Sequence record: OP902294.1
Reading direction: 5' to 3' (one strand)
Length of the DNA: 64,000 nucleotides
Origin: Staphylococcus phage BSwM-KMM1
Part shown: piece by piece, positions 3,016-64,000 of the stretch
Numbering within the stretch: the first letter of the stretch is position 1
Layout of the letters: each line of letters starts with the position of its first letter
The notes under the pieces: generated by a model
Told to the model about the DNA's origin: nothing
What the model saw: the letters and a program-made list of their open reading frames with translations, nothing else
Database searches by the model: none
Program-made: the position numbers and the translations under genes

Positions 3016-3443
3016 ATGGCATCAGAAGCTAAACAAACCGTCCATACTGGTAATACCGTCTTACTTATGATTAAAGGTAAACCGGTAGGAAGAGCACAAT
3101 CAGCATCAGGTACTCGTGAATACGGTACAACTGGTGTATACGAAATCGGTTCTATCATGCCTCAAGAACACGTATACTTACGTTATGAAGGTACAATTAC
3201 AGTAGAACGTTTACGTATGAAAAAGAAAACTTTGCAGATTTAGGATATGCTTCACTAGGTGAAGAAATTCTTAAGAAAGATATCATTGATATTTTAGTAG
3301 TAGATAACTTAACTAAACAAGTTATCATTAGTTACCACGGATGTAGTGCTAACAATTATAATGAGACTTGGCAGACAAATGAAATCGTAACAGAAGAAAT
3401 TGAGTTTAGTTACTTGACAGCAAGTGACAAAGCACGTACTTAA
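3016..3443 (+). CDS. tail tube protein (reading frame broken by a 1-nt deficit in an A-run near 3222-3228)
   Basis: The N-terminal 75 aa MASEAKQTVHTGNTVLLMIKGKPVG... stop prematurely after ATGAAAAAG. The next frame continues DLGYASLGEEILKKDIIDILVVDNLTKQVIISYHGCSANNYNETWQTNEIVTEEIEFSYLTASDKART to the TAA at 3441-3443. Together this gives a tube protein of about 142 aa. Confidence 0.8.
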
Positions 3444-3450
3444 TATATTA

Positions 3451-3477
3451 GACCAACTAAAAAAGTTGGTCTTTTTT
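3451..3477 (+). terminator. rho-independent terminator
   Basis: Perfect 8-bp stem GACCAACT/AGTTGGTC with an AAAAA loop, followed by TTTTTT. Sits immediately after the tail tube stop. Confidence 0.75.
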
Positions 3478-3478
3478 A

Positions 3479-3507
3479 TTGACAATATGAAAATTAAATG
3501 CTACTAT
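3479..3507 (+). promoter_or_regulatory. sigma-A-like promoter (TTGACA, 17-bp spacer, TACTAT with upstream TGC)
   Basis: TTGACA at 3479-3484 directly abutting the terminator. This is part of the 39-bp cassette repeated at 57488-57526. Confidence 0.5.
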
Positions 3508-3538
3508 AAGAATATCAAATAAAAAGGAGATGTACTAA

Positions 3539-3679
3539 GTGGCAAATAAAAGAAAAACAATAGGTAAAATGAGTAATACCAGGGCAACATGGAATATTAA
3601 CCCTGTAACTAAAGTTAAGAAAGATAAAACTAAATATTCTAGAAAAAATAAGCATAAAGGTATTGACAACTATAATTAA
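3539..3679 (+). CDS. small, very basic 46-aa protein (MANKRKTIGKMSNTRATWNINPVTKVKKDKTKYSRKNKHKGIDNYN)
   Basis: GTG start 8 nt after AGGAGA. Lies between two consensus promoters. Not in the ORF track because it is under 60 aa. Confidence 0.3.
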   Translation: MANKRKTIGKMSNTRATWNINPVTKVKKDKTKYSRKNKHKGIDNYN

Positions 3680-3691
3680 ATACAGTATACT
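3663..3691 (+). promoter_or_regulatory. sigma-A-like promoter TTGACA-N17-TATACT
   Basis: Exact TTGACA (3663-3668), 17-bp spacer, TATACT (3686-3691). About 30 nt upstream of the 3722 ORF, which has RBS AAGGAGGGGG. Confidence 0.6.
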
Positions 3692-3721
3692 AAGAGTATA
3701 ACAAATAAGGAGGGGGATTAT

Positions 3722-4174
3722 ATGACTACATTTTGGTCAAAAAGAAGAACAACTGGTAAACATAGACAAGTAAAGAAACATTATACTCAAATGACTTTAC
3801 AGGAAAAGAAACAATGTGTTAAACTATTACAAGATACAGTTAATACACACAAATATTTAGAACTATCAAGTCATTGTAAAACTAAAATTAAAAATGAAAT
3901 TAATTTCAGTAAGTTAGTAGGATTTATATTCAAGAGTAATAACGCACCATTTAATATTATTGAATATAATATTACAGACTTCCATGGGGAAAAACAAAGA
4001 AGAATAATTTTTAAAAGTCCTACTATTGTAACTATAGAAGGAGTAAGTAGTTATCAGTATTTAGTTATTAACTTAGAAGATGGTACAATAATAACTACAT
4101 ACTATAATGGTATTACAGATACACATAAAACATTAGATTTATATTATTATGATAAAGGCTTGACAATTCAATAA
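3722..4174 (+). CDS. hypothetical protein
   Basis: 150-aa ORF with a strong RBS. No recognisable motifs. Confidence 0.5.
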   Translation: MTTFWSKRRTTGKHRQVKKHYTQMTLQEKKQCVKLLQDTVNTHKYLELSSHCKTKIKNEINFSKLVGFIFKSNNAPFNIIEYNITDFHGEKQRRIIFKSPTIVTIEGVSSYQYLVINLEDGTIITTYYNGITDTHKTLDLYYYDKGLTIQ

Positions 4175-4186: not shown

Positions 4187-4258
4187 ATGGATAATATTAA
4201 AGGAATAATTGTAACAACAACATGTGCAAACTTTAAAGAGGGGAATTTTAATTATTAA
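4187..4258 (+). CDS. 23-codon small ORF (MDNIKGIIVTTTCANFKEGNFNY)
   Basis: ATG 6 nt after AAGGAGGA, an excellent RBS. Overlaps the start of the 4224 ORF in another frame, so it could be the true N-terminus of that gene if an indel is present. Confidence 0.25.
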   Translation: MDNIKGIIVTTTCANFKEGNFNY

Positions 4259-5074: not shown

Positions 5075-5209
5075 ATAATGAATCGGATAAGCGTAGGCTT
5101 TATTAATATTTAAAAAGGAAGGTACATCATATTATGGCTGAAGAAATTAAAAAGAACAAGAAGTACAAGAGCAAGAAACTACGAAAGAAGATAAAAAGAT
5201 GTTAGTAAA

Positions 5210-6176: not shown

Positions 6177-6226
6177 AGGGTGGTAGGTGATACTACCATC
6201 CTTATTTTTTAAATGGATGGTGAATA

Positions 6227-9200
6227 ATGATGGCAATGAATGACGATTATAGATTGGTCTTATCCGGTGATAGTTCAGATTTAGAGAATAGTCTGAAGGC
6301 TATAGAACTTTATATGGACTCTTTAGAGGCTAAAGATATTGATGCCCCTTTAGATAATTTCTTGAAGAAATTAAAAGTAATTGCTAAAGAAGTTAAAAAT
6401 GTACAGAATGCAATGGATAAACAGGAAGGTAAATCTGTAGTATCTGCTAAAGATATGGATGAGACCATTAAATCTACTCAATCTGCTACGAAACAAATAA
6501 ATGAGTTGCAGAAAGCTTTAGACGACCTTCAAAAAGAAAATATATCTAAAGGTATAGCACCTGACCCTGAAGTTGAAAAAGCATACGCTAAGATGAACAA
6601 AGTTGTTAAAGAGACTAGTGAAAATCTTAGTAATATGTCTAACCAAAAAATAGGTTCGGATGCTAGTATTCAAAATAGAATTAAAGAACAGAAAGTATTA
6701 AATAAAGTAACTGAAGAATACAATAAAATAAGTAAAGACTCTAGTTCTACCCAAGATTATACTAAAAGACTAAGAGCTAATCGTAACATGACTAGAGGGT
6801 ACATGGAACGTTCAGAAGGAACAGGACGTTTAACGTATGACCAAGGAGCAAGAGTTAGAAGTGAATTAGGTAAGGTAGATTCTTATGAAAGTCAAAGAAA
6901 ACAAAACCAACGTAACTTAACACAAGCAAGAGAACAGTATAGTAACTACGGAAATCAACAACAAGATTTGACGAAACGAAGAGCTAATGGTCAAATTAAT
7001 AAAGCCCAATATGAGCAAGAACTAGCTTCTATTAAACAAGAAATGAAAGCTAGAGAAGAACTTATAACTAACTATGAGAAATTAGGGGCTGAACTAGATA
7101 AAACTATTCAGTACTATAAAGGCTCAGTTCAGAAAGATTTTCAAACTAGAGATGTAGACCAACAACGAGGAACATTCGGTAGAATGGTTCAAGAGCGTTT
7201 ACCATCTATTGGTTCTCATGCTATGATGGGTACGACTGCCATGGCTACAGGTTTATATATGAAGGGTGCTTCATTAAGTGAGACAAATAGACCAATGGTT
7301 ACATCATTAGGTCAAAATTCAGACAATATGGATATAGATTCTGTAAGAAATGCATATGGGGACTTGTCAATTGATAACAAGTTAGGTTATAATAGTACTG
7401 ACATGTTGAAAATGGCTACTTCATATGAATCTTCTGTAGGACATAAAAGTGATGCGGAAACGGAAGCAGGAGCTAAACAACTTGCAATAGGGGGTCGTTC
7501 ATTAGGAATACAAGACCAAGAAGCTTACCAAGAGTCTATGGGTCAAATAATGCATACTGGTGGAGTAAATTCCGATAACATGAAGGAGATGCAAGATGCA
7601 TTCCTAGGTGGGATTAAACAATCAGGTATGGTTGGTCGTCAAGATGAACAACTTAAAGCATTAGGTTCTATAGCTGAGCAATCAGGAGAAGGAAGAACTT
7701 TAACTAAAGACCAAATGAGTAATCTTACCGCTATACAATCTACTTTTGCAGAGTCAGGAAGTAAAGGATTACAAGGTGAACAAGGTGCCAATGCTATTAA
7801 TAGTATAGACCAAGGACTTAAAAATGGTATGGATAGTTCTTATGCTCGTATAGCAATGGGATGGGGAACACAATACCAAGGTCTTGAAGGTGGATACGAT
7901 TTACAAAAACGTATGGATGAAGGAATATCTAATCCTGAAAACTTGACAGATATGTCTGATATGGCTACTCAAATGGGTGGCAGTGAAAAAGAACAAAAAT
8001 ACCTATTTAATAGAAGTATGAAAGAGATAGGTGCCAACCTTACTATGGAGCAATCTGATGAAATATTTAAAGATGCTCAATCCGGAAAACTATCTAAAGA
8101 AGAGTTAGCTAAAAAGCTAAGAAAATGGAAGAAGAAGGTAGTAAAGAAGGGAAGATAATGCCACTGATTATAAAGAATCTAAGTCAGGTAAAAATGACCA
8201 AAATAAAGCTAAGACCGATGATAAAGCAGAGGATACTTATGATATAGCCCAACCACTTAGAGATGCTCACAGTGCCCTGGCAGGTTTACCTGCACCTGTA
8301 TATCTAGCAATAGGTGCAATAGGGGCATTTACAGCTTCATTAATTGCATCAGCAGGTCAATTCGGAGCCGGACATCTAATTGGTAAAGGTGCTAAAGGCA
8401 TGAGAAACAAATGGAATGATAGAAAAGGAGGTAACTCAGGAGGCGGGATTGCTCCTGGCGGAGGCTCTCCTAAAGGAGGCGGGTCTCCTAAAGGTGGGGG
8501 AACTCGTTCTACAGGTGGTAAAATTCTCGATGGTGCTAAAGGATTAGGAGGATTCCTAATTGGAGCAGGGGTACTAGAGGAGCTAAAGATACCACTAAAA
8601 AGCTTTTGAAGGTACTAAAAAGTATTTAATAGAGATAATGGTAGAAAAGCTATGGATAAATCTAAAGATATAGCTAAAGGTACTGGTAGCGGGCTTAAAG
8701 ATTTATATAGTGGTAGTATACTAGGTAAAGAAAGAAGACAGAACCTAGGAGAGAAAGCTAAAGGACTATACGGTAAATTTGCTGATAAGTTTGGTGATGG
8801 AAGTAAAAATGGTATTCTATCACAATCACCTAACGCAGGAGGTAGTGGAATAGGTAAGTTAGGAAAACTTGCCGGAGGATTAGGAAAAGGTGCAGGACTC
8901 TTAGGAGTTGGAGCATCCGCACTATCTCTTATACCTGCTCTAGCATCAGGAGACGATAAAGCTATAGGCAAAGGCGTAGGCTCTATGGGTGGCGGAATGG
9001 CAGGTGCATCCGCAGGAGCTTCTATAGGAGCACTATTCGGAGGAGTAGGCGCAGTACCTGGAGCTTTAATAGGAGGAGCTGTCGGTTCTATCGGTGGAGG
9101 AGCTGTCGGTGAAAAAGTCGGAGATATGGCTAAAAGTGCAAACACTAAAGATGGGTGGAAATTATGGTCTAATGGAGACAAAGACGGTAAGAATAAATTC

Positions 9201-10208
9201 CAAGACTCTTTATTAGGTAAACCTATATCTAAAGCATGGAGTGGTGTAACAGGTCTCTTTGATAATGACGCTGAAGCATCTGAAGAAGATAGTAAAGATA
9301 AGAAAAAGGCGTTAAAGGTGTTAAAGGAGATACTAAGAAGAAAGAAAAAATGACAGCAGAACAACTTAGAGAAAAGAATAATCAATCTGAAACTAAGAAC
9401 CTTAAAATCTATAGTGACTTACTTGACAGAGCTCAGAAAATTATTGAGAGTGCTAAAGGTATAAATATAGACGGAGGAACATCTGATGGTGGTTCTGATA
9501 GCGGAGGCTCTGCATCTGATATAGGTGGAGAAGGCGCAGAGAAAATGTATAAGTTCCTAAAAGTAAAGACCTATCTGATAATCAGGTAGGAGCTATTATG
9601 GGTAACTTAAAACAAGAATCTAATTTAGACCCCAAAGCTGTTAACCAATCTAGTGGTGCATTTGGTATAGCCCAATGGATGGGAGATAGAAAAGCAGGGT
9701 TGGATAAATTTGCCAAAGAAAAAGGTAAAAGAATACTGACCTAGATGTACAGTTAGACTATCTATGGAAAGAGATGCAGTCCGACTATGAAAGTAACAAC
9801 CTCAAAAATGCAGGTTGGAGTAAGGACGCAAGCTTAGAGAAGAATACTAATGCATTTGCTACCGGATTTGAGCGTATGGGAGCAAATGAAGCTATGATGA
9901 GCACCCGTGTTAACAATGCTAAAGAATTCAAGAAGAAATACGGAGGCTCTGGTGGCGGAGGAGGTGGAGGAGCTCTATCTTCTACTTACCAAGAAGCTAT
10001 GAGTAACCCTGTATTAACTACCGGTTCTAATTATAAAGGCTCTAATGACGCTTCTAATGCCTCTACAACTAACAGAATAACAGTTAATGTTAACGTTCAA
10101 GGCGGAAATAATCCTGAAGAAACTGGAGACATTATCGGAGGAAGAATTAGAGAAGTTCTAGACAGTAATATGGATATATTTGCAAATGAATATAAGAGAA
10201 GTTATTAA
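6227..10208 (+). CDS. tail tape-measure protein, about 1327 aa, with an internal lysozyme-like domain (frame broken at least 5 times in this sequence)
   Basis: ORF fragments 6227-8158, 8160-8609, 8652-9353, 9350-9589, 9590-9745 and 9740-10208 read as one protein once single A deficits are restored at about 8150, 9345, 9565 and 9745. The 8400 and 8652 segments are in the same frame but separated by stops at 8607-8615, and I could not reconstruct that junction. The protein has a coiled-coil-rich N-terminus, Gly/Ala-rich low-complexity segments (GGGSPKGGGSPKGGG, GGSGGGGGGGA) and the segment GNLKQESNLDPKAVNQSSGAFGIAQWMGDRKAG typical of phage tail lysozyme-like domains. Confidence 0.75.
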
Positions 10209-10247: not shown

Positions 10248-10281
10248 ACTCTTATACATATAAAAAAATAAAAGGAAGTAT

Positions 10282-12714
10282 GTGTATATGCGTAGAATAA
10301 GAAGACCTAAGGTAAGAATAGAAATCGTTACAGATGATAATACATTTACATTACGCTTTGAAGATACAAGAGACTACAGCGGGGAAGAATTTGGAGCTAA
10401 GCTTTTAGGTTTCCAAACTAAAAACTCAATGGAAGATGATAGTTCTGTTTTCCAAATTAATATGGCAGGAGATACGTATTGGGATAAGTTAGTTATGGCT
10501 AATGACATAATCAGAATATTTATTACACCTAATGATGACCCTAACGATAAAGAAGGAAGACAAGAAAGGTTAATTCAAGTTGGAATGGTTTCACAAGTAT
10601 CAAAAGTAGGTAGCTATGGAAATGACCAAACTCAATTTAGAATAACCGGTCAATCTTTTGTAAAACCATTTATGAAATTTGGGTTAGGTGTTATTCAAGA
10701 GGTTCAAGCTGTACTTCCTGAAGTAGGTTGGCTTATTGACGGTGACGGAGATAATGAAGTTAAATTTACAGGTAGCTCGGCTCATGAAGTTATGACAGGT
10801 ATTATCCGTAGATTTGTCCCTTACATGAAGTATAATTATACTGAAAAGACATATAATACTATTGATAATTATCTTGACTATGATGATTTAAGTAGTTGGG
10901 ATGAGTTTGAAAACTTGACAGAAGTCTCTGCTTTCACTAATTTTGATGGGACGTTAAAACAGTTTATGGATATGGTAACAGCTAGACCTTTCAATGAATT
11001 ATTCTTTAAAAACTCAGAGAAAACACCTGGTAAGGCACAACTTGTTTTAAGAAAAACACCTTTCAACCCTACTGAGTGGAGAGCTCTTGACGTGATTAAA
11101 GTCCCTACAGAGGATTTTATTGAAGAGGATGTAGGTAAAAGTGATGTTGAAACATACTCTATATTTACAGCTACACCTGCAGGTATGTTAAAAGAACTTA
11201 ATGGTGATGTATTTTCTAAACCACAATTTCACCCTGAATTGACTGATAGATATGGGTATACTAAATTTGAAGTAGAAAATATCTATCTTAGTACTAAATC
11301 AGGTTCAGCTACTGAAGACTCAGATTCTTCGGGTGATGATAATGGTACTGAAAGAGGAACTTACTCTAAAATTATGAAAGATTTAAGTAACTATGGAAGA
11401 GATAATGTTTCTAAAGGTATAGATAAGTATACAAGTAAATTATCTTCAAAATATAAAAACTTAAAAAAGCCCAAGCTAAAAAAATTATAGAGAAGTTTGT
11501 CAAAGAAGGAAAAGTAACAGAAAAAGAATACGAGAAGATAACAGGGAATAAAGTAGATGATGAATTAACATCAGATAACAGACCGAAGTTGACAAAAGAT
11601 AAATTAAAGAGTATACTAAAAGAGGAGTTTAAAACACAAGATGATTTTAATAACTCTAAGAAAAAGAAAAAGCTAAGACAGATGCACTTAAAGAATTGAC
11701 AACTAAATATCGTTTTGGTAATAAAACACACGCTACAACTTTGCTAGATGAATATATTAAATACAAAGGAGAACCACCAAATGATGAGGCTTTAGATAAC
11801 TACTTAAAAGCTATTGAAGGTGTAAGTAACATAGCAACGGATACTGGTTCTGACGCAAGTGATAGCCCTTTAGCAATGTTCTCTCGTATGTTATTTAATT
11901 GGTATCATGGTAACCCTAACTTTTACGCAGGGGATATCATTGTACTAGGAGACCCTAAGTATGACCTTGGTAAGAGATTATTTATAGAAGACAAACAACG
12001 AGGAGATACATGGGAATTTTATATCGAATCCGTAGAACATAAGTTTGACTATAAACAAGGTTACTACACAACAGTAGGTGTTACTAGAGGACTAAAAGAT
12101 GCTATCCTTGAAAGTGGTAAAGGTAGTCCTCATAGATTTGCAGGTTTATGGAATCAGTCATCTGACTTCATGGGAGGTCTCATGGGAGAAGATACATCTA
12201 AAGAACTTAAAGAAAAAGGTGTGTCAGAGAAACAACAAAGCGGTGGAGATAAAGATGGTGGTTCTGATAGTGGGGGAGCCCAAGACGGAGGTTCTTTAAG
12301 CTCACTTAAGAAATTTAATGGTAAGCTACCTAAACATAACCCAAACTTTGTTCAACCAAATAACCGACATTACAAGTACCAATGTACTTGGTTTGCCTAT
12401 AATAGAAGAGGAGAGCTTGGTATTCCTGTACCTTTATGGGGGACGCTGCCGACTGGATTGGTGGGGCTAAAGGAGCAGGTTATGGGGTAGGTAGGACACC
12501 TAAACAAGGTGCCTGTGTTATTTGGCAACGAGGAGATAAAGGTGGCTCTAATGCTTATGGTCACGTTGCTTTCGTTGAGAAAGTTTTAGACGGTGGAAAG
12601 AAAATATTTATATCCGAGCATAACTGGGATACACCGAATGGTTATGGAACTAGAACAATAGATATGAGCTCTCAAATTGGTAAAGAAGCCCAATTTATTT
12701 ACGATAAAAAATAA
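10282..12714 (+). CDS. tail-associated cell-wall hydrolase with C-terminal CHAP domain (frame broken about 4 times)
   Basis: Fragments 10282-11490, 11490-11700, 11696-12490 and 12436-12714 join into one protein of about 810 aa when A-run deficits at about 11470 and about 11660 and a G-run deficit at 12428-12432 are corrected. The C-terminus carries a CHAP signature: a conserved Cys in QCTWFAYNRRGELGIPVPLWG and a His in GHVAFVEKV. Confidence 0.75.
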
Positions 12715-12727: not shown

Positions 12728-12871
12728 ATGGCAACAGATAAACAAGTTAAAGATATTATCGAAAAGTTTATAGATAATGTATTTAGTTTTGATGTACTAA
12801 CAATGGAAAAGGTAGCAGAGAAAGACGAAGAAGTCAAAAAATATCTGTTAATGACGTATATAACAAAGTAG
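12728..12871 (+). CDS. small hypothetical protein, or N-terminal part of the next gene if an A is missing at about 12866
   Basis: ATG preceded by AAAGGAGG. 47 codons ending in TAG, which overlaps the GTG of the 12871 ORF. Confidence 0.3.
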   Translation: MATDKQVKDIIEKFIDNVFSFDVLTMEKVAEKDEEVKKYLLMTYITK

Positions 12872-13614: not shown

Positions 13615-15450
13615 TGGTAGTAAGATTCCAATCTTCCATGGGAAGAAGTTTAAAAAGAGTAGATTCAGACGACTTAAATGTAAAAGGGTTAGTTTTAGCC
13701 ACAATAAGTAAAATCAATTATCAGTATCAGTCAGTAGAAGTTAAAGTTAATAACTTGACACTAGGAAGACATATAGGGGATGATGGTAGTTTATCTGTAC
13801 CTTACCCTAAATCCTTTATAGGTAGAACACCTGAAGGTAGTGTATTTGGAACAAAACCTTTAATTACTGAAGGTTCCGTAGTATTAATTGGGTTTTTAAA
13901 TGATGATATAAATAGTCCTATAATTCTTAATGTTTATGGAGATAATGAGCAAAATAAAATGATTAATACCAATCCTCTTGAAGGAGGTAAATTTGATACA
14001 GATGACACTTACAAGTATAGTAGTGCAATATATGAGATACTACCATCTTTAAATTATAAGTATGAAGATGGAGAAGGTACAAGTATTAAAACTTTCAATG
14101 GTAAATCTTTCTTCTCTATGACATCAGGTGAAGAGGAGAAACCACAAGCTTCAGACTTCTATACTGGTACAGAATATCAAGATTTATTTACTTCATATTA
14201 CGGTAATAAAACATTAATTGAGCCTAGAATACAAAAAGCACCTAACATGTTATTTAAACATCAAGGCGTTTTTATGATGATGGTACACCCGATAACCATA
14301 TAACTACTCTATTCCTTTCTGAACGAGGGGATATTAGAACATCAGTATTAAATACAGAAACACAACAAAGAACAACACAAGAAATGTCGAGTGATGGGTC
14401 TTATAGAGTAATTAAACAAGACGATGACTTAATGTTAGATGAAGCTCAAGTTTGGGTTGAGTATGGAATTAGTGAAGATAATAAATTTTATATTAAAAAT
14501 GATAAACATAAATTTGAATTTACAGATGATGGTATTTATATAGATGAAAAGCCTATGTTAGAAAACTTAGGAGATAGTATTGAAGAATCTATGAAAAACT
14601 TAGAAGAGATACAAAAGAACTTGAAGATATAAATTATCTCTTAGAAGGAGTAGGGAAGGATAATCTAGAGGAACTTATTGCCTCTACTAAAGAGTCTATA
14701 GAAGCATCTAACCAAGCTACTAAAGATGTTCAAACCTTAGGAACAAATATAAATGCTGTAAGTTCTAGAACAGAAGGTATTATAACACAATTCCAAGATT
14801 TTAGAGATAGAACATTCAAAGATTTTTATGATGAGGTAAATGAATACCTAGCAGGAGAGCATGGCTCGGTTGAAACAATTGTTAATACTGATTTACCTGA
14901 AATAAGAAATACTGAACAAAAGTATAGACATACAACGTTTAGAGACATAAAAATACATGCGGATTTACCCTTTAAATTCCAAGACTATGATAGTATAGTA
15001 GCAAATGATAATGTGACGTATTATTTCCCGCAAGGTATTGCCATTAATAACGGTCAAACCTATATTATACATTCAGCTCCTGAGAGCGGTACTAAAAGAC
15101 TAATTGTTATCTATGATGAGTTTTATAAGTATGTTAATATGTTTTACGCAGGAACAACCGGAGGAGAAGGTCTTCATGTAGAAACAGAAGGAACTAAAAC
15201 TTACCTCTATGCTAGAACAAGCAATAATAATATAGGTAAGTTTGATGTAACTAATTCTAGAAATATTGAGGAGAAATCAACGTTACAACCTGTAGAAGAA
15301 TATAATATAAACGCATACATGAATTTCTTTAGAACAGAAAGTGGATGGGGAGTAGAATACAATAACCAAACTAAAGGTGTGTTTTTACAGAGAGATACGG
15401 TAGTATTCTTCAACAAGGATTTCAGTAAAAAACAGGGTACTTATGGATAA
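13614..15450 (+). CDS. baseplate/tail protein of about 612 aa (frame broken twice: T-run at about 14265, A-run at about 14615)
   Basis: ORFs 13614-14303, 14304-14632 and 14640-15450 read continuously after 1-nt corrections. No enzymatic motif found. Confidence 0.5.
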
Positions 15451-15524
15451 ACCCTTCTAATTCTACATTATGGTCAAGTAATTTATTAGAGGGAGTTACA
15501 AACCACTCAGCTAAGAAGCAAGGT

Positions 15525-16507
15525 ATGACACTTATAAATAATACCATCGTACAGACACTAGGAGGTAACTGGAACCCAACTAGAGATATTGAACCACATA
15601 CTTATCATTTACAAGGGGTACAAGAGATAAGCCCTAGTGGAGATATTATGAATGATTATACGTACCATCCTTATGAGTTAAGAGATTACCTAACTAAACA
15701 AGGTAAAGTTGTCGATATGATTGAACATGAAGGTGCGTTCTCTTATAATAATAGACTATTTAGTATTATTGTTTACAAAAGCAGAACTAAATCAGATGCA
15801 AATAAACAAGGTGTACTTATTGTAGAATACAAACCTAAAGAGAAAGAATACACTTTCAATAAGACAGGGAGCCTTTCTTGGCACCTACAGCTAACTATAA
15901 CCCTTATAAAACTAATATTGATGGTAAGCTTTATAATGAATACACAGGAGAAGAAATAACAAATATTAAAGACCTTGTAAGATATATGGTATCAACGTAT
16001 CAAAGTAATATTGTATTCTATTCATCTAAGGTATCTATGTTAGATTATGAAGGAGTAGCTATACCAGGAGGTATACGAGTAGAGTTAGAGAATTTAAATA
16101 ACTACACATTCCATTTACTGTACAGAGGTAATGCTACTAATGAAGTTTATATAATAAATTATACAGCCTCTACAGATAGCTTTAATATAACTTCACAAGA
16201 TTCTGATAACAAATACGATAAACTAGATTTAAGTACTATTAAATATAAGATGACAGGGTACGTAACAAATGCTACAAATACACCTACAAGTACTAGACAT
16301 GGTTATATAGATTCAAGAAGGTATGGCTCTAATTCTAAATTGTTCTTCTCTCCTTATAATAGTTACAGAAACATATATGAACCTAAATCTAGGGGAGTAT
16401 GGCAAGGTTGGGAAAAAACAGGAAGTAACACAGATAACAACAACCCTGTAGTAGTATCTAAAGAAGAACCTGCAGAAGCAGTTATTTGGTTTGAGGTGAC
16501 TGACTAA
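15525..16507 (+). CDS. tail/baseplate protein of about 327 aa (frame change near 15875)
   Basis: ORFs 15525-15959 and 15878-16507 overlap in different frames. The TTG 'start' at 15878 is an artefact of the ORF caller. Composition is fibre-like, rich in N, T and Y. Confidence 0.4.
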
Positions 16508-16698
16508 TGAATAAGTATTTAATAGTTTTGAAAGATAAGAATAACAAAGAGTTTTTAAACGAGTATGATATTCAAAATATAGAAATTTATATGGGAGTAA
16601 TTGTTATTGCTTATATGTTAGAAAGTACAGCAAAAGAATTAGAAACACATTCTAACATAGAGAGTATAGAAAAGATGGAGCAGAGCATGTCGATATAG
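16507..16698 (+). CDS. small hypothetical protein
   Basis: 63-aa ORF. ATGA overlap with the preceding gene. Confidence 0.35.
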   Translation: MNKYLIVLKDKNNKEFLNEYDIQNIEIYMGVIVIAYMLESTAKELETHSNIESIEKMEQSMSI

Positions 16699-16751
16699 AA
16701 GAAGAATCCGATATAAGATATGAGACTTCCACAACAACGTATGCCTTTGAT

Positions 16752-51300: not shown

Positions 51301-51569
51301 CATTTGATTTCTTAAAAGCTGAAATTGGTGGTAGAGAAGTACAATACCCTATTGAAGCAGATATGGAAATTGGTTTAAATTATAATGATATGGTAGATTA
51401 CGATGAGGAAGAAATTGAGACATTTAATTCTTACCAAGGTTATATTAAATATATGATGAATTTACAAACATTAGAAGATTACAAAGAGTCAGGTAAATTA
51501 ACTGATGAGCAATTTGAAAAAGCTACTAATGTAGTTAAAGGTGAGAAATCTATCTATCAAGAAATTTAA
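48385..51569 (+). CDS. polA: DNA polymerase A family with 3'-5' exonuclease domain (about 1061 aa; A-run frame change at about 50375)
   Basis: Exo I motif ITAWDLETNSL. Polymerase motif A LGADYSALEMRI, motif B ATKAVNFGLAFG and motif C VHDSILID. ORFs 48385-50391 and 50433-51569 are joined by the open frame ...DKKAIGYALDNLDLKDDVKELLELLKYHASMQTK... after restoring one A. No intron or intein. Confidence 0.85.
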
Positions 51570-51576
51570 AAAAGTA

Positions 51577-51604
51577 TTGACAAAAGGATAACTTATGTTA
51601 TACT
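51577..51604 (+). promoter_or_regulatory. sigma-A-like promoter TTGACA-N16-TATACT
   Basis: Lies 8 nt after the polA stop. Confidence 0.55.
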
Positions 51605-51892: not shown

Positions 51893-52374
51893 ATGGAGAT
51901 ACACATTGATTCATTAGACTTTACAAATTTTACGATTAAAGATAGAAATGGTAACTCACAAGATTTTGATATTACAGATGAATTAAAGATTACAGAGTAT
52001 ACAATACAAGAAGACTTTATGCAACAGTCAGCTAAATATGCTTTTGGGCTTCTATATTAGAGAAGGTAAGAGCTTATTCTGAAATGGAACAAAGAAACTT
52101 AGAAACAATTGGTAGTAAGTTAAATCTTACTATTAGACAAGAATACGAACAGCAAGGCAAGAAACCTACAAAAGATATGATTGAGTCTAGTGTATATATT
52201 CATGACTCTTATCAACAACAGCTTAAAGTTGTTGAGGCTTGGAATTATAAAGTTAAACAACTCCAATATGTTGTAAAAGCTTTTGAGACTAGGAGAGATA
52301 TGATGATACAACTAGGTGCAGAGTTAAGACAGACAAATAAAAATGGTGGAATTACGAACCCATTTTCACATTAA
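51893..52374 (+). CDS. hypothetical protein of about 160 aa (T-run frame change at about 52042)
   Basis: MEIHIDSLDFTNF... joins ORF 52084-52374 through ...AKYAF(W)ASILEKVRAYSEMEQRN.... Confidence 0.4.
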
Positions 52375-53697: not shown

Positions 53698-54956
53698 ATG
53701 GCAAGAGCAAAAAAGGTAAAGAAGTAGATTTAACAGATTTAAATACAATTGATTTAGGTAAAGAGTTAGGGTTAACATTATTATCTGATAGTAATAGAGC
53801 AGATATTAAAAATGTTATACCTACAATGATTCCTCAGTACGATTATATCTTAGGTGGAGGTATTCCATTAGGTAGATTGACAGAGGTTTATGGTTTGACT
53901 GGTAGTGGTAAATCTACTTTTGCAGTTCATTTATCTAGAATTGCAACACAGCTAGGCGTTATTACTATTTGGATTGATATTGAAGGAACCGCAGATAATA
54001 ACCGTATGGAGCAATTGGGAGTAGATGTAACTAAACTATTTGCTATTCAAGCAGGAGAAGATAGACTTAAAAATGTAACAGAGTTATCTGTAGAGGCTGT
54101 AGGTAAAGAATTAGAACATTGGATTGACACCTTTAATGAGAAGGTTCCAGGAATACCTATTATCTTTATTTGGGACTCATTAGGAGCTACAAGAACTCAG
54201 AAAGAGATTGATGGCGGTATTGATGAGAAACAAATGGGACTTAAAGCATCTGCTACTCAGAAAGTTATTAATGCAGTAACACCTAAATTAAATGATACAA
54301 ACACAGGATTAATTGTTATTAACCAAGCTCGTGACGATATGAATGCAGGTATGTATGGTGACCCTATTAAGTCTACCGGAGGAAGAGCATTTGAACATAG
54401 TGCTAGCTTACGTATTAAAGTTCATAAAGCTTCACAATTAAAACAGCAAAGTGAATTGACAGGTAAAGACGAATATCACGGTCATATTATGCGTATTGAG
54501 ACTAAGAAATCCAAATTGTCTAGACCAGGACAAAAAGCAGAAGCAGACTTACTTTCAGGATATGTAGTAGGTAGTAAAGATGACCCTATAGAATTAAATG
54601 GTATTGACTTAGAGCATATTATTTACAGTGAAGCAGTAGCACGAGGTTTAATTACTAAAGGAGCATGGAGAAACTATGTAACACTTAACGGAGAAGAAAT
54701 TAAACTTAGAGATGCTGAATGGGTACCTAGACTTAAAGATGATAGAGGGCTTTATTTAGAATTAGTTAGTAGAGTATATGAAAGTTTATTCCCTAATGGG
54801 TACTCACCACTAGACAATACTAAAGTAGACCTATTACAACTAGAAGAGTATCAAGCACTAGAAAAACATTACGCTGAGTTAGAAGAAGAAAATAATAAAC
54901 AAGAAGAACAAGAGGAAGAAATAAAAGGAGAATCTCAAGAAAAGGATTCTGAATAA
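53698..54956 (+). CDS. RecA/UvsX-like recombinase of about 419 aa (A-run frame change at about 53715)
   Basis: ATG 53698 after AGGAGG. MARAKK(G)KEVDLTDLNTIDLGKELG... joins ORF 53826-54956. Walker A GLTGSGKST, Walker B IIFIWDSLGA, acidic C-terminus. Confidence 0.8.
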
Positions 54957-54959: not shown

Positions 54960-55139
54960 ATGGATAATTTAATAGATAAAAATATGAACCAGGTAAGAGA
55001 ATCTTTGGGGAATGCAAATTCCTCAGATGTTCTTCCTTTACCTTATAAAGATATAGCAAAGAAATTTGAAGAAGTAAAAGAAAAGGTGAATCAATTATCA
55101 TTGAAGAAGGTGGATTCCCTTACACAGATTCTACAGTAA
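54960..55139 (+). CDS. small 59-aa protein
   Basis: MDNLIDKNMNQVRESLGNANSSDVLPLPYKDIAKKFEEVKEKVNQLSLKKVDSLTQILQ. Its stop overlaps the next ATG (TAATG). Confidence 0.3.
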   Translation: MDNLIDKNMNQVRESLGNANSSDVLPLPYKDIAKKFEEVKEKVNQLSLKKVDSLTQILQ

Positions 55140-55915
55140 TGTATATTGAACATGTAACTGATAGATGGGCGGGAGGATACTCCTTAATCAGACATGAAGG
55201 TGAAGAAGTTAAGGTACCTAAAACTATTCATTTCTCTGATATATATGTTAAGGATAAGTCACATAAAGTAAGAATAATCTTCGAGGGGCTAATCCTTATG
55301 AAGAAAGCTAGTAATGGTAATAGATACGTAGTAGATGTAGACGGTATCCCTGCTGATTTTGAAAGGGACTTAGATAGCCTACTTAACAGATATAAAAACC
55401 TTCGATGGGCATTATACCATAAGTATGCAGGGATATTATCGAACGATTTTGAAAGACAAGAGTTAAGAGAATACATTGATGAGCAATTTATTAAATTAGT
55501 TAAAGAATATAATATTAGAAGTAAAGTAGATTTCCCTGGATATATTAAAGCTAAACTAACTTTAAGAGTTCAAAATAGTTACGTTAAAAAGAATGAGAAG
55601 TATAAGCGTACTGAAATAATAGGTAAAAAGGATTATACAGTAGAATCACTAACAGAAGACTTAAATGAAGATTTTGAAGATAGTCAAATTATGAGTTATG
55701 TATTTGATGATATTGAATTTACAGAAATTCAAAGTGAGCTACTGAAAGAGTTACTTATTAACCCTGAAAGAGAAGACGATGCTTTTATAGTTTCTCAGGT
55801 AGCAGAGAAATTTGATATGAAGAGAAAAGAAGTAGCAAGTGAATTGACAGAGCTAAGAGATTATGTTAGATTTAAAATAAATGCATACCATGAGTACTAT
55901 GCTAAAAAGAATTAA
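55139..55915 (+). CDS. sigma-70-family-like transcription factor (candidate late sigma factor)
   Basis: 258-aa ORF. The middle segment FIKLVKEYNIRSKVDFPGYIKAKLTLRVQN resembles sigma region 2.2-2.4. The C-terminal IVSQVAEKFDMKRKEVASELTELRDYVRF resembles a region 4 HTH. Position after the RecA-like gene matches K-like phages. Confidence 0.5.
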   Translation: MYIEHVTDRWAGGYSLIRHEGEEVKVPKTIHFSDIYVKDKSHKVRIIFEGLILMKKASNGNRYVVDVDGIPADFERDLDSLLNRYKNLRWALYHKYAGILSNDFERQELREYIDEQFIKLVKEYNIRSKVDFPGYIKAKLTLRVQNSYVKKNEKYKRTEIIGKKDYTVESLTEDLNEDFEDSQIMSYVFDDIEFTEIQSELLKELLINPEREDDAFIVSQVAEKFDMKRKEVASELTELRDYVRFKINAYHEYYAKKN

Positions 55916-57515: not shown

Positions 57516-57550
57516 AAAAAGTTGGTCTTTTTTATTGACAATATATAATA
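57516..57550 (+). promoter_or_regulatory. sigma-A-like promoter (TTGACA...TGGTACACT) following the cassette
   Basis: TTGACAATAT is identical to the 3479 copy. The downstream sequence diverges but both copies end in TATAAGAAT. Confidence 0.45.
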
Positions 57551-57593: not shown

Positions 57594-57853
57594 ATGGATA
57601 TTCCAACAATATTATTTAGAAATCCATATGATTACACAAAAGTAAAAAATTAATGGAAAGCAAAGAGCAGTACATTGTAGTAAAGTTTGATTCAGTTTCT
57701 GTTCATAACTTAAATGTTCAAGGTATGATGAACGTCATTCAAGATTACCTACACATTTATGGTTACAGAGTTAAAGAGTATGGTCAAGAAAATGCTTCTA
57801 AAGATGATGAAAGAGACGTTAAAGGTTACTTATACGAAAGAGTAGGTGACTAA
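57594..57853 (+). CDS. hypothetical protein of about 86 aa (A-run frame change at about 57645)
   Basis: ATG 57594 after AAAAGGAGGG. MDIPTILFRNPYDYTKVK(K)L then joins ORF 57653-57853. Confidence 0.4.
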
Positions 57854-57856
57854 GTT

Positions 57857-58297
57857 ATGCAAGTTATAGTAAATGCTAACCATGTCCAATCAAATACTAT
57901 TAGCGGTACCGAAGAATTTTTTAATATTATACAAGTAGATACTTTTAGAGAAGGATTACTGCAGATAGAGGATGAACCAACTGTACTAGCAGGATTTATA
58001 TATGATGATAAAATATTTAAAGATGCTGTAATTCAAGACCCTAGTATTCTGATGAACATTGAAGATAACGATATCCTATATGTATCAGATGTTGGTGTAT
58101 TACCAAATCCATTTGTTACTGTAGAAGAAGATAAAAAGTATTATTCACTATTACAACAAATTGTAGAATTAAGTAATGAAGACATACCTGAATCTATAGT
58201 AAGAGATTCAAAAGATTTAACTAGGTATTATAACTTTCAAGATTTTGAAGATGTATTCGATTTAAATAGAATTTATAAAAAGAAGTTGACACAGTAA
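57857..58297 (+). CDS. hypothetical protein
   Basis: 146-aa ORF. Acidic. Confidence 0.45.
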   Translation: MQVIVNANHVQSNTISGTEEFFNIIQVDTFREGLLQIEDEPTVLAGFIYDDKIFKDAVIQDPSILMNIEDNDILYVSDVGVLPNPFVTVEEDKKYYSLLQQIVELSNEDIPESIVRDSKDLTRYYNFQDFEDVFDLNRIYKKKLTQ

Positions 58298-58314
58298 AAG
58301 AAAAGTGCTATACT
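58286..58314 (+). promoter_or_regulatory. sigma-A-like promoter TTGACA-N17-TATACT
   Basis: Overlaps the 3' end of the 57857 ORF. Confidence 0.55.
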
Positions 58315-58610
58315 AATGGTAATGTATATTTATTATATGAAGTTCTGCCGGACTATAAACTACCTCTAGCCTATAGGTTACTTGAAGATAAGGAACATGG
58401 TATTGTTATTATAGGTTCACAGACACGTTCTAATAATGATATACTAACTTTTATGTTAAAGGTATGGATACTAAGTCAATAGCAAGTATGTTCGGGGTAG
58501 AGCATTACTCTAATTCTAATATATTTCATACATTCATAAATAGTCACATTAACATTTTAGGAAATCAAATAACTAATTTTATAAGAGAGAAAGGAAGCAG
58601 TTATGAGTAA
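58315..58610 (+). CDS. candidate small HTH DNA-binding protein (frame changes at about 58335 and about 58470)
   Basis: Three overlapping frame pieces read MVMY...EVLPDYKLPLAYRLLEDKEHGIVIIGSQTRSNNDILTFMLKGMDTKSIASMFGVEHYSNSNIFHTFINSHINILGNQITNFIREKGSSYE. The MDTKSIASMFGVEHYSNSNIFHTF segment has helix-turn-helix character. The stop overlaps the phosphoesterase ATG. Confidence 0.25.
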
Positions 58611-60596: not shown

Positions 60597-61001
60597 ATGG
60601 ATTTTAATTTTAGTGCTTTTGATGATAGTTCATTAGCAATGAGAGTAAGTGAAGGTGTATACTACTTTAATGATGTACCTTACTACTTTATCGAGCATGT
60701 TGAAGAAGAGTTATCAGAGTATGTTATTGTATATGATATACATGACAAGGATGAAAAAGATAACCCACAAAAGAAATATAGAATTGAACCTTACCAAAAA
60801 ACGATACCTGGAGGGACTCCTCTTAGTAATTTAATTAAGAGTATGATGCCTCAGCGTAAATACCCTAAGAAGGTCGTAGAAGACCCTATATTTGTAGCTA
60901 ACATTATTCCTTTAGGTACAGATACGATAACAGGTAAGGTCGGTAAAGGGTTTTTGAAAGAGATAAAGACAGACCGCAGTATTCAGAAAAAGAACCTATG
61001 A
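60597..61001 (+). CDS. hypothetical protein
   Basis: 134-aa ORF with RBS AGAGGTGAATTAAAAATG. Confidence 0.45.
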   Translation: MDFNFSAFDDSSLAMRVSEGVYYFNDVPYYFIEHVEEELSEYVIVYDIHDKDEKDNPQKKYRIEPYQKTIPGGTPLSNLIKSMMPQRKYPKKVVEDPIFVANIIPLGTDTITGKVGKGFLKEIKTDRSIQKKNL

Positions 61002-61124
61002 AAATTATTCATGGTCAATACACAGGTATCTTTATAGGTTTAACCAGTGTTAAATGGAATAGGACTTATACTCCTTTAGAGAGTGTTGTAGAGTACTGTA
61101 GGAGAGTAAAAGGAGATAGATTGA

Positions 61125-61892
61125 ATGTCTAACGATGTAGTTAAGTTCTATGAAAAGGATATTAAAGACCTTATAAGAACTAAAAAGCATATGTTTAAAG
61201 ATGATGAAATCACTAGTGATATAAATGATATACGTATATTTAATGAGAAAGTTATTTGCCAGGGTAAATGTAGAACAGATTGTTTAGTATTAGACCGTAA
61301 TGGTACTGTAATGGGTATAGAAATAAAGACTGAGAGGGATTCTACTCAACGGTTAAACAACCAACTAAAGTATTATAGCTTAGTCTGTAAATATGTTTAT
61401 GTAATGTGCCATGATAAGCATGTACCTAAAGTAGAGCAAATACTAAAACGATATAAACATACACATGTAGGTATCATGAGCTATATCAACTTTAAAGGTA
61501 AACCTGTTGTAGGTAAGTATAAGGATGCTACACCATCTCCACACAGAAGCCCATATCACACAATGAATATCTTATGGAAGACAAACCTTATGACAATACT
61601 TAGATTGATTAGAGACCCTCATACGTACAGAACAGGGTATAGTTATAATGCTAGTGGTAGATATAGTGGAGGTGAAGGTAACTTCTCTCAAACAACACAA
61701 AGTAAAAGAATGAAGAAACCTGCTATTATTAATCAGATAATCCATTATGTAGGCGTAGATAATACCTATAAACTATTTACAAGAGGGGTTATTTATGGTT
61801 ATAATAATAGGTGGGAGGTAATAGAAGAAGATTTCTTTAATACTATGAAGAATGGGGTAAGGGTAATCAATGAGCAAAGACAAACCAAATAG
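61125..61892 (+). CDS. hypothetical protein
   Basis: 255-aa ORF. Cys/His-rich middle segment (CQGKCRTDC...CKYVYVMCHDKH). No confident family assignment. Confidence 0.45.
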   Translation: MSNDVVKFYEKDIKDLIRTKKHMFKDDEITSDINDIRIFNEKVICQGKCRTDCLVLDRNGTVMGIEIKTERDSTQRLNNQLKYYSLVCKYVYVMCHDKHVPKVEQILKRYKHTHVGIMSYINFKGKPVVGKYKDATPSPHRSPYHTMNILWKTNLMTILRLIRDPHTYRTGYSYNASGRYSGGEGNFSQTTQSKRMKKPAIINQIIHYVGVDNTYKLFTRGVIYGYNNRWEVIEEDFFNTMKNGVRVINEQRQTK

Positions 61893-62315
61893 ACGTAAAG
61901 AGATTCAACACCAACCTGTTAACTTTGCCCCTACAAATACATTAACTGGAGCTAATAATAGCTTTTTACTAAGAAACCTGCAGAACCTAAAGATACAACT
62001 TCAGTTATAGAGTATAGAATACTCTTTATTAAGAGGTTTGATAATGTTACTAGTACTGATGTTAAGCTACAGAAAAAGTATGCATTAAATCTTATTAGTG
62101 AAGCACTAGATGTTAAAGAGACCTATTTATCTCTTAAACAGAAAGGTAAGAAAACAGAGTCTATACTCCATACCGATAGGGTATACTACGTTCATAGAGG
62201 TAAGAAGCTTATTGGTAAATGTAGTATTAGAGAGCAAAGAACTTTTAGAGGTAAGCACTTGATATTTATATTCAAGACAAGACATAGAGTTAAAGCAGAA
62301 AGGAAAGATAAATAA
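61870..62315 (+). CDS. hypothetical protein of about 148 aa (frame change at about 61985)
   Basis: MSKDKPNRRKEIQ... continues after a 1-nt shift as ...KKPAEPKDTTSVIEYRILFIKRFDNV...RVKAERKDK to the TAA at 62313. Confidence 0.35.
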
Positions 62316-62610
62316 TGTTAAAAGGATTTTCACAACATACAGATAAGAAAACAAATGTAAATCACCTATACAAATTATTAACTAGTGGTAAGGTAGAGTT
62401 ACTAGGTGTAGCTTATGAGAGTGATTACTTCCTTCAGGAGTGACCGTACAGGCTTACATTGAAGATATAGGTAATGAAGATAAAGGATTACAATTTGTTA
62501 ATAAGGTAAATGTAGTAGAGTCAATGAAACAAGCAGTAGTGGGAATGAACAATCAATTAGGTTCTTCAGGACTAGGCTATGTTAGAACAGAACAACTTAA
62601 AAAGAATTAG
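62315..62610 (+). CDS. hypothetical protein of about 98 aa (frame change at about 62445)
   Basis: TAATG coupling. MLKGFSQHTDKK... shifts to ...VTVQAYIEDIGNEDKGLQFVNKVNVVESMKQAVVGMNNQLGSSGLGYVRTEQLKKN. Confidence 0.3.
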
Positions 62611-62624
62611 AAGAAACAGGATTA

Positions 62625-63175
62625 ATGACAGACTTACTATCAAGAGGTACAAATTTAACTTCTACAAAGCAAGTAGATATTGTAAGTACGTTCATAGAAC
62701 CTATTGTAACTTACCAAGATATTACAATAGCTAAAGATATTAAATTACGTTTATACCGATTAGAAGAAGAATCACCCTTAAATGGTTATAATCATATTGT
62801 TTACCTTCTTACTACAGAAAAGATTTATGATGGTCAAACACTATTTGGTATGCTTTCTAAGAAAGATAAACTATCTAAATCAGATACAGAGAAGTTACTA
62901 GCATTCTTCAGAAACAATAGTTTAATAAGTAAAAGTGTTTTTCTGCTAAACTAATTAGTAAGGATTATTATTTTAGCCTCTATAATACACACGAGACAGG
63001 AATATTCTTCTTAGAAGATACTGATGTCATTACCATTGCCTGTGGTCAATCATATGTTAAAGTTAATACTAAGGATATTAAATCTAGTTATGTTAAAATA
63101 GAAGATAAAACTCAGAAATTAACTGAACTAGTAATCAACCTAAAAGGTGAAGACACCTTAACTATTTTATTATAA
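62625..63175 (+). CDS. hypothetical protein of about 183 aa (T-run frame change at about 62940)
   Basis: ORF 62625-62954 continues after a 1-nt fix as ...SAKLISKDYYFSLYNTHETGIFFLEDTDVITIACGQSYVKVNTKD...GEDTLTILL. Confidence 0.4.
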
Positions 63176-63394
63176 ATATACGTTAATTAAGTATAAATAT
63201 ACGTTATAAAAGAAGTTTTCATACTGTTTTTAATACAGAAACTAGTTGAGTTTTTTCCACTTACTCTAGTTTCTGTGAAATTATATTTATGAAAAGTTAA
63301 AATATCTTTTAGGTAAAGGCTTTATAAACAGTTACAAAATATATTAAAATTACACACAAAGTAGTTAATAAAATTATATTGCATTTATATATTA

Positions 63395-63423
63395 TGAAAT
63401 AATAACAGAAATTGTGATATATT
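63395..63423 (+). promoter_or_regulatory. late-type -10 motif TGATATATTA in a 355-bp non-coding region
   Basis: TGATATATTATATAG at 63415-63429, without a clear TAGT box. Followed by a perfect 9-bp hairpin at 63476-63496. Confidence 0.3.
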
Positions 63424-63532
63424 ATATAGTGTAACCTTGAAACAGTTGATGTTGTAGGGTTTGTTTATGTTCGTTCCACTGGTTTCAGAAACCAGTTACC
63501 ATAAATAAAAGACAGTTAAGGAGAGCTATATA

Positions 63533-64000
63533 ATGGCTAGAAAAAGAATTTAAGAAATAAAAACAATGATATAAAAGTCGTTCCGGATAAAGAAAAAGAA
63601 AGTATACTATCGAAGTTATACCATAATAAGTTACTACGCTCAAAAGTAGATAATGCATTAGATGAAGACATGAGCTATGATGATATTATAGAGTTATGTA
63701 AAGAATATGATTTAGAGTTGTCTAAATCAGCTATCACAAGATATAAGAGTAAGAGAAAAGAAGCTATTGAAAATGGATGGGATTTAGGAGAACTTATTGA
63801 TAAACGTAAAAAACAAGTGTAAAAGATATAAAAGAAAAAGAAACTCCTATATTAGAAGAAGAGCAACTTTCTCCATTTGAGCAATCAAAACATCATACAC
63901 AGACGATTTATGATGATATACAAGTACTAGATATGATTATATCTAAAGGTGCAAAAGGATTAGAGTTTGTGGAAACATTAGACCCTGCTTTAATGATACG
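63533..64000 (+). CDS. hypothetical protein, 3'-truncated by the window end (two A-run frame changes at about 63548 and about 63818)
   Basis: MARK(K)NLRNKNNDIKVVPDKEKESILSKLYHNKLLRSKVDNALDEDMSYDDIIELCKEYDLELSKSAITRYKSKRKEAIENGWDLGELIDKRKK(T)SVKDIKEKETPILEEEQLSPFEQSKHHTQTIYDDIQVLDMIISKGAKGLEFVETLDPALMI. RBS AAGGAGAG. Continues beyond the window. Confidence 0.35.

Follow-up and report, generated by a model that had tools for sequence, protein, structure and literature searches.

Fragmented genes in a 64-kb stretch of the Staphylococcus phage BSwM-KMM1 record very probably reflect homopolymer under-calling

Introduction

Homopolymer indels persist in the consensus of nanopore assemblies and fragment their gene calls, an effect described for bacterial as well as phage genomes (PMC9262707, PMC10438801). 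In one phage case, two such errors broke a DNA polymerase gene into three pieces (PMC10438801). Here we analysed a stretch of 64,000 nucleotides (nt) from Staphylococcus phage BSwM-KMM1 (OP902294.1), called the window throughout, in which an initial annotation made from the sequence had described gene after gene as broken by frameshifts in single-base runs and had ascribed this to under-calling by the sequencing platform and not to decay. Like an unpolished Oxford Nanopore (R9-type) consensus, the window has one-base deletions in runs that are mainly of at least 5-6 nt, fragmented genes and a substitution accuracy that stays good. It differs from the usual nanopore consensus in a few sites that lie in runs of 2-3 nt and in a high density of about 1.25 sites per kb, the latter because the genome, with about 32% guanine plus cytosine (G+C), is rich in A/T runs.

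Two other kinds of system invite comparison. Assemblies from 454 and Ion Torrent resemble the window in their run-length-dependent frameshifts, mostly deletions, and in the false pseudogenes that follow, but a flanking-base effect and a near-total failure at runs of at least 7 nt, both seen in the window, are less typical of them. Recoding systems also change frame at A/T runs, as the window does, but the features that define recoding are absent from it. We conclude, with a probability of about 0.97, that the frameshifts are a technical artefact of sequencing or consensus calling in which homopolymers were under-called, and that they are not biology. This class of error is already well known and no new biology is involved.

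Results

The window has a G+C content of about 32% and all of its substantial open reading frames (ORFs) lie on the + strand. Megablast against phage records matched it to hundreds of staphylococcal Herelleviridae/Twortvirinae genomes, and it shares nucleotide collinearity and gene content with classified members of the Twortvirinae (Herelleviridae). Judged by these matches, the window comprises the tail, baseplate and replication genes of a staphylococcal myophage of this subfamily. Four relatives, PG-2021_19 (MZ417322), vB_SauM_EW36 (MT080593, here EW36), vB_SurM-PSU5 (OP913463, here PSU5) and CF7 (PP034388), are collinear with all 64 kb at 89-98% nucleotide identity and were used as references. 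The closest of them is PG-2021_19, with 95.5% identity over positions 1-25000 and 98.5% over 39001-64000. None of the records searched was identical to the window, and a 49-mer across the shortened polA run had no exact match in viral, genome or metagenome contigs. Gene content was read from the annotated PSU5 and CF7 genomes. The window begins with tail sheath, tail tube, tape measure, CHAP tail lysin, baseplate, adsorption and receptor-binding proteins, continues with two helicases, Rep, SbcD/SbcC, primase, resolvase, NrdI/E/F and PolA, and ends with a RecA/UvsX-like recombinase, a sigma factor and then more structural genes. The order from tail sheath to replication/recombination module is the same in the Twortvirinae relatives, from which the window nevertheless differs as a distinct genome with a best identity of 95-98.5%, mosaic divergent patches and the lack of three small insertions found in PSU5. 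Scans of the window for tRNAs, Rfam families and tandem repeats returned nothing of relevance.

Gene fragmentation was measured by searching the ORFs of PG-2021_19 against the window with tblastn. Frame changes were found in 32 of 65 genes, with 45 changes visible in total. PSU5 proteins searched against PG-2021_19 with the same pipeline as a control gave 0 real frame changes, the two apparent hits being cross-matches between paralogues. In the tail assembly chaperone, RecA-like and tail sheath genes the loss was confined to the initial codons or the stop codon. The initial annotation had counted about 45 split genes, a figure that corresponds to the visible frame changes; the affected genes number about 37 out of about 64. 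Its density of one site per 1.4 kb, starting at position 3016, was likewise revised to about 80 sites or roughly 1 per 0.8 kb, including 15-17 intergenic sites, with the first site already upstream at 949. The density rose because intergenic sites and multiple hits per gene were counted. The statement that nearly every long gene is broken applied to genes of at least 500 amino acids (aa), every one of which was hit, but not to several mid-sized genes that are intact (a 480-aa helicase, a 458-aa protein, a 416-aa metallophosphoesterase, SbcD and baseplate J). All ten run positions that it named were present within a few bases and each was one base shorter than in the relatives: the A runs at 3220-3224 (A5, tube), 50368-50372 (A5, polA) and 26517-26522 (A6, adsorption protein), the T runs at 14269-14273 (T5), 18542-18546 (T5), 32581-32585 (T5), 52042-52045 (T4) and 62938-62942 (T5), and the G runs at 12438-12442 (G5) and 43954-43957 (G4).

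Such differences would also appear if the references had over-called their runs and the window were right, and two of the references, PG-2021_19 and EW36, are flagged UNVERIFIED in GenBank and carry no annotation. The PG-2021 phages were sequenced on Illumina MiSeq or PacBio (PMC8629997) and the EW phages on Illumina NextSeq (PMC8290860). Overall the references are four independent genomes from three laboratories that agree with one another, at least three of them obtained from Illumina or PacBio data. Gene integrity was examined in PG-2021_19, PSU5 and CF7. Despite its flag, PG-2021_19 carries uninterrupted orthologues of the PSU5 genes across the 64-kb region without frame changes, the genes of PSU5 and CF7 are annotated at full length, and domain-complete proteins are obtained from the longer runs only. 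Over-calling in the references is effectively refuted by this ORF integrity.

The indels that break the genes run in one direction. Alignment to PG-2021_19 placed 84 one-base deletions and 11 insertions in the window, and 61 of the 84 deletions were within window runs of at least 4 nt, a class that covers 7% of the sequence (p=2e-51). Clean indels of 1-2 nt were counted with strict flanks, both for the window against every reference and for the references against one another. The window was shorter/longer at 78/4 positions when compared to PG-2021_19, 80/2 to EW36, 70/0 to PSU5 and 73/2 to CF7, and the sign test on the 78 shorter and 4 longer positions against the closest relative gave p=7.6e-19. 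Pairs of references at comparable divergence (89-94% identity) produced symmetric indels, 4-9 each way, the first genome being shorter/longer at 4/4 positions for PG-2021_19 and PSU5, 6/5 for EW36 and PG-2021_19, 6/5 for EW36 and PSU5, 7/7 for CF7 and PG-2021_19, 4/9 for CF7 and EW36 and 6/8 for CF7 and PSU5. As the reference pairs are comparably diverged yet symmetric, about 70 events belong to the window only, all in one direction. At least one of the four references had a longer run at 78 window runs, 63 of them in 35 genes and 15 intergenic. The references were unanimous at 67 of these 78 (57 with at least two informative references), and the total came to about 80 once imperfectly flanked sites were added. 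Phase-variable contingency loci, which would be long simple-sequence tracts in a few particular genes that vary both ways, were also considered and rejected, as the sites number about 80, are spread over about 37 genes and intergenic DNA, and are all contractions of short runs.

Longer runs were far more likely to show a deficit. The fraction of PG-2021_19 runs of length n that were shorter in the window rose from 1/2121 (0.0%) at n=3 and 2/563 (0.4%) at n=4 to 11/169 (6.5%) at n=5, 29/58 (50%) at n=6, 13/14 (93%) at n=7 and 5/5 (100%) at n=8. Two-base deficits emerged at n=8-9, and the curve was the same with PSU5 as the reference. Runs of at least 8 nt were absent from the window as compared to 3-5 in the relatives, and 7-nt runs numbered 7 as compared to 19-21. 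Runs of G and C, which account for 10 of the affected sites, were shortened at lower lengths, including all four G5 runs as well as G4 to G3 and C5 to C4. The initial annotation had described a deficit of one base in a long run, and this was the case at most sites; four sites were 2 nt short (3472, 4240, 6205 and 10262) and several lay within runs of 2-3 nt (2943 in the sheath stop codon, 19192, 46040 and 62431).

The base next to the run also had an effect. A6/T6 runs followed by a 3' G (5' C on the reverse complement) were shortened in 24 of 29 cases as compared to 8 of 35 otherwise (p=3e-6), and all 10 of the shortened A5/T5 runs carried this type of flank (10/76 with it and 0/116 without). 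The error therefore depended on sequence context (k-mer) in addition to run length, which is suggestive but not diagnostic of the platform. A flow-based platform (Ion Torrent or 454), in which the signal per flow saturates in long runs, could have produced the same artefact, and one-directional, run-length-dependent under-calls combined with normal substitution accuracy are also typical of flow chemistry. A flow-based consensus at reasonable coverage usually shows fewer long-run errors, however, while here 50% of 6-mers and 93% of 7-mers are wrong at the consensus level, and the flank effect would not be expected if run length alone set the signal. We consider a flow-based source unlikely. A pore with a reading width of about 5-6 nt would account for the inflection of the curve at that length and for the influence of the neighbouring base, and this influence suggests a nanopore-type signal/k-mer caller over flow chemistry.

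Location and selection were also assessed. Runs of at least 6 nt were shortened in 35 of 58 cases in coding DNA and 12 of 19 in intergenic DNA (Fisher p=1.0), so selection has not filtered run shortening. The ratio of non-synonymous to synonymous substitution rates (dN/dS), measured in the frame of the orthologue, was 0.119 downstream of uncompensated frameshifts (7276 codons) and 0.121 in frame (12566 codons). By this measure the apparently out-of-frame regions have evolved under full purifying selection. No true in-frame stops were found in the window genes. Two apparent stops were alignment artefacts, one in a divergent 3' end beside an (AATA)n repeat and the other in a divergent SbcD patch, where the SbcD ORF is intact in the window. 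Substitutions unique to the window, scored at codons where the four references agree, gave a non-synonymous to synonymous count (N/S) of 47/154 or 0.31, and the references' own values were 0.17-0.32. These counts indicate that only run lengths are affected, with no sign of substitution errors or of relaxed constraint.

The frameshifts might instead be real, in a decaying non-viable phage, a prophage remnant or a mutator lineage with a tendency to -1 slippage. Homopolymers are indeed favoured sites of replication slippage, and long runs often contract by genuine mutation. Decay would, however, require about 37 genes to be broken together, including the sheath stop, tube, tape measure, helicases, primase, PolA, NrdEF and recombinase, and a plaque-forming myophage cannot do without tube, tape measure, primase, helicase and polymerase at once. 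Pseudogenisation or genome decay should also leave relaxed selection, nonsense codons and mixed indels, and none of these was found: dN/dS downstream of the shifts was 0.12, there were no nonsense codons, and we saw neither large deletions nor an excess of non-synonymous changes. Nearly all runs of at least 7 nt are shortened by exactly one base at 2-5% divergence from an intact relative. Real slippage gives expansions as well as contractions, as between the reference pairs, whereas the window is one-directional. We therefore regard real frameshifts in a decaying or mutator lineage as very improbable.

Real frameshifts could also be bypassed by recoding, through transcriptional slippage or programmed ribosomal frameshifting, in which case the phage would express about 37 frameshifted and mostly essential genes by pervasive slippage at A/T/G runs of 4-7 nt. 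Most of the sites are indeed A or T runs, and transcriptional slippage has been reported to rescue frameshifted genes in some AT-rich endosymbionts. The runs in the window are only 2-7 nt long, however, G/C runs are affected too at 10 sites, and 15-17 sites are intergenic with the same rate of shortening there. Relatives at 89-98% identity encode the same proteins in a single frame, and the sites have no heptamer or downstream signal in common, only the run. Programmed frameshifting or slippage was rejected on its own expectations as well, since the genes of PG-2021_19, PSU5 and CF7 are single-frame and full-length with no conserved two-frame organisation, and we found no slippery motif or long A/T tract confined to coding DNA. 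Both bypass of the frameshifts by recoding and the pervasive slippage that it would take, which if true would amount to genome-wide recoding in a virus, are extremely improbable.

If the runs were under-called, restoring the missing bases should restore the genes. Reference base(s) were inserted at 81 sites and the greedy + strand ORF set was compared before and after. Automatic repairs at 31141, 36499 and 36829 were dropped; these are compensated indels in divergent stretches, not under-calls, and their repair breaks ORFs that are intact in the window. Repair reduced the number of ORFs from 86 to 64, and 37 ORFs contain at least one repair. The expectation that fragments would rejoin at full length was borne out for most repaired genes, which matched their PSU5 orthologues end to end. 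Repaired proteins and their identities to PSU5 were tail tube (142 aa, 100% over 125 aa), adsorption protein (1158 aa, 97.4%), helicase (582 aa, 99.3%), Rep (537 aa, 98.1%), SbcC (639 aa, 94.4%), primase (354 aa, 97.5%, with zinc-ribbon and Toprim domains), NrdE (704 aa, 97.3%), PolA (1061 aa, 98.9%) and the RecA-like protein (419 aa, 415 in PSU5, 74.5%). Pfam domains were uninterrupted over the repaired junctions: the NrdE RNR barrel aligned with its whole profile (positions 1-523 of 523), the NrdF domain aligned with positions 5-281 of 281, and the site repaired at 32581 lay inside the ResIII domain of the helicase. Two genes were not fully restored. The middle of the tape-measure gene (8400-10200) was incompletely repaired because none of the references is similar enough there, and the GDPD-like gene was ambiguous at its 3' end because of a +1/-1 pair, an extra A at 16366 that lies 25 nt upstream of a one-base deficit (G4 vs G5) at 16392-16395.

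Together, direction, run length, location, selection, stops, substitutions and repair all agree with under-calling by the platform, and not decay, as the initial annotation had proposed. Its suggestion to align the window to intact relatives and to score whether the indels fall in homopolymers gave the predicted outcome, with the counts corrected.

Several points weigh against under-calling as a complete account. The true run lengths were deduced from relatives, and the technology that we assign to the record was deduced from its error pattern. The references were not unanimous at 11 of the 78 scored run sites. At 8 of these 11 the run was longer in one of 2-4 informative references, 7 of the 8 being intergenic, and these eight weakly supported, mostly intergenic sites may be natural length polymorphisms. 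The sites in runs of 2-3 nt (2943, 19192, 46040 and 62431) are less naturally explained by homopolymer compression. Finally, the 16366/16392 pair is self-compensating in the raw window and may be a real pair or two errors, with one reference aligning there.

Individual sites and their locations are listed in Table 1.

Table 1. Shortened runs in the window, all on the + strand. Run lengths are those of the window, followed where given by those of the references. Support is the number of informative references with the longer run among the four relatives.
Position	Run and deficit	Gene or location	Support
949..953	A5, one A short	71-aa gene; first site	4/4
2942..2943	TAA stop minus one A (CCTATC vs CCTAATC)	tail sheath; stop-codon deletion gives ORF of 603 aa instead of 587	PG-2021_19 and PSU5
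3220..3224	A5, one A short	splits tail tube gene	4/4
3472..3477	T6 vs T8	intergenic, terminator-like T run right before TTGAC	3/3
4240..4243	G4 vs G6 or AG5, 2 nt short	splits 80-aa gene	
5112..5197	A5 at 5112, 5149 and 5193, one A short each	one just upstream of tail assembly chaperone gene, two near its 5' end	4/4, 3/3, 3/3
6205..6210	T6 vs T8	intergenic	4/4
8111..8151	A5 (8111-8115), G3 (8149-8151), one short each	tape measure	3/3, 4/4
9303..9730	A5 (9303-9307), A3 (9565-9567), A4 (9727-9730)	tape measure, divergent region	
10262..10268	A7 vs A8 or A9	intergenic	3/4
11463..11671	A6 (11463-11468), A5 (11667-11671), one short each	CHAP tail lysin	
12438..12442	G5 vs G6	CHAP tail lysin	PG-2021_19 and PSU5
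12836..12841	one base missing after A run	splits 295-aa tail protein gene; 295 aa after repair	
14269..16395	T5 (14269), A4 (14613), A6 (15427), G3 (15867), G4 (16392)	965-aa GDPD-like gene, five sites	
16670..17605	A4 (16670), G4 (17602), one short each	367-aa gene	
18542..18546	T5 vs T6	263-aa structural gene	3/3
19192..19193	GG vs GGG or GAG	174-aa gene	3/3
21307..23150	T5 (21307), A5 (21349), G3 (23148), one short each	large structural gene downstream of baseplate J	
23804..23808	A5 vs A6	173-aa baseplate gene	3/3
26517..26522	A6 vs A7	splits 1158-aa adsorption-associated tail protein gene	3/3
29615..29619	T5 vs T6	637-aa carbohydrate-binding structural gene	2/2
29909..30012	GA repeat 2 nt short (29909-29917), C4 vs C5 (30009-30012)	121-aa gene	
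31555..31560	T6 vs T7 or T8	intergenic, terminator-like run	3/4
32581..33242	T5 (32581), A5 (33238), one short each	582-aa helicase	
34273..34278	A6 vs A7	Rep gene (537 aa)	3/3
38391..39246	A4 (38391), A3 (38452), A4 (38549), A5 (38955), A5 (39242)	SbcC-like gene	
40524..41407	A5 (40524), T5 (40860), A6 (41402)	primase gene	
41572..42224	A5 (41572), A6 (41903), A5 (42220)	two small genes	3/3, 4/4, 3/3
42768..42849	T6 (42768), A5 (42845)	resolvase gene	3/3 each
43954..43957	G4 vs G5	splits nrdE	
46040..46041	CTC-GG vs CTCCGG or CTCAGG, one base missing	splits nrdF	
48320..48325	T6 vs T7	intergenic, terminator-like run adjoining ATTGACA	4/4
50368..50372	A5 vs A6	splits polA into 668-aa and 378-aa ORFs	3/3
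51568..51585	A6 (51568), A4 (51582), one short each	polA 3' end and just after	3/3 each
52042..52045	T4 vs T5	160-aa gene	4/4
53709..53714	A6 vs A7	codons 4-6 of RecA/UvsX-like gene; cuts start codon off from rest of gene	4/4
55081..55288	A4 (55081), G4 (55285), one short each	117-aa gene	4/4 each
55904..55908	A5 vs A6	sigma factor gene	3/3
57528..57533	T6 vs T7	intergenic, before ATTGACA	4/4
57644..58452	A6 (57644); A5 (58277), T4 (58449)	86-aa gene (57644); 251-aa gene (58277 and 58449)	4/4, 4/4, 1/1
60951..61967	T5 (60951); T5 (61963)	178-aa gene; 148-aa gene	2/2, 1/1
62431..62942	CC vs CCC (62431), A5 (62599), T5 (62938)	287-aa gene	4/4, 3/3, 3/3
63541..63813	A5 (63541), A6 (63808), one short each	last, partial gene	4/4 each

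Several other features of the window were recorded during the comparison. A run of T (or A) stands directly before (A/G)TATTGAC(A) in intergenic DNA at 3472-3485, 4623-4634, 48320-48333, 51568-51581 and 57528-57541, an arrangement that, by its sequence, looks like a terminator abutting a -35-like TTGACA box. Under-calling affects T-tracts as well, so the distance from terminator to promoter would be wrong in the record too. Two intergenic runs are among the very few that are longer in the window, A7 at 36487-36493 (A6 in PG-2021_19 and EW36), just upstream of the SbcD ribosome-binding site, and A5 at 3521-3525 (A4 in PG-2021_19 only); both are probably natural variation. The intergenic (AATA)n repeat at 23503-23535, downstream of the large structural gene, has about 8 copies in the window, and PSU5 is 16 nt shorter there while PG-2021_19 is divergent. 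This difference appears to be a real length polymorphism and not a homopolymer error.

Gene content and divergence also vary along the window. Mosaic patches at 8400-9950, 28000-30150 and 36800-36970 are far more divergent from all four relatives than their surroundings and cover the middle of the tape measure, a carbohydrate-/receptor-binding protein (53% aa identity to PSU5) and part of SbcD, which suggests recombination or host-range diversification. At 13614-17609 the window has, like PG-2021_19, a gene for one 965-aa GDPD-like protein and after it a gene for a 367-aa protein, where PSU5 and CF7 have two GDPD genes of about 640 aa instead, so that the architecture of this baseplate-associated hydrolase region differs. 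PSU5 carries extra genes that are absent from both the window and PG-2021_19, namely a pair of 311 aa and 52 aa after the tail tube (~3390-3548), one of 93 aa before SbcD (~36430-36500) and one of 132 aa after the 160-aa gene (~52375). These may be mobile insertions such as homing endonucleases.

Discussion

The pattern of deficits is what would be expected if the window were an unpolished consensus from a technology with systematic homopolymer under-calling. In a nanopore about 5-6 nt would be sensed at once and the current would be flat inside a longer run, leaving run length to be estimated from dwell time with a bias toward low values; as the bias is systematic, high coverage would leave it in the consensus. 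Judging from the error pattern, nanopore is the likely source and flow-based sequencing a much less likely one, with other sources making up the small remainder. An Oxford Nanopore assembly of an early generation (R9-type) that was not polished with short reads is the most likely origin.

Annotation of the record at face value would give about 37 false pseudogenes or about 86 fragment ORFs. The falsely split genes would include polA, nrdE, nrdF, primase, helicase, tape-measure and receptor-binding genes, and the false pseudogenes would pollute protein databases as well as comparative and host-range analyses. As the listed sites and their repair from the references show, short-read polishing or reference-based frameshift correction would rescue the record. 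The combination of no runs of at least 8 nt, a 50% failure at 6-mers and a strong 3' G effect offers a fingerprint for similar records. The importance of the finding is limited to curation of this record: the phage itself is a viable Twortvirinae myophage whose genes are intact, and its DNA, as the relatives indicate, would carry the longer runs.

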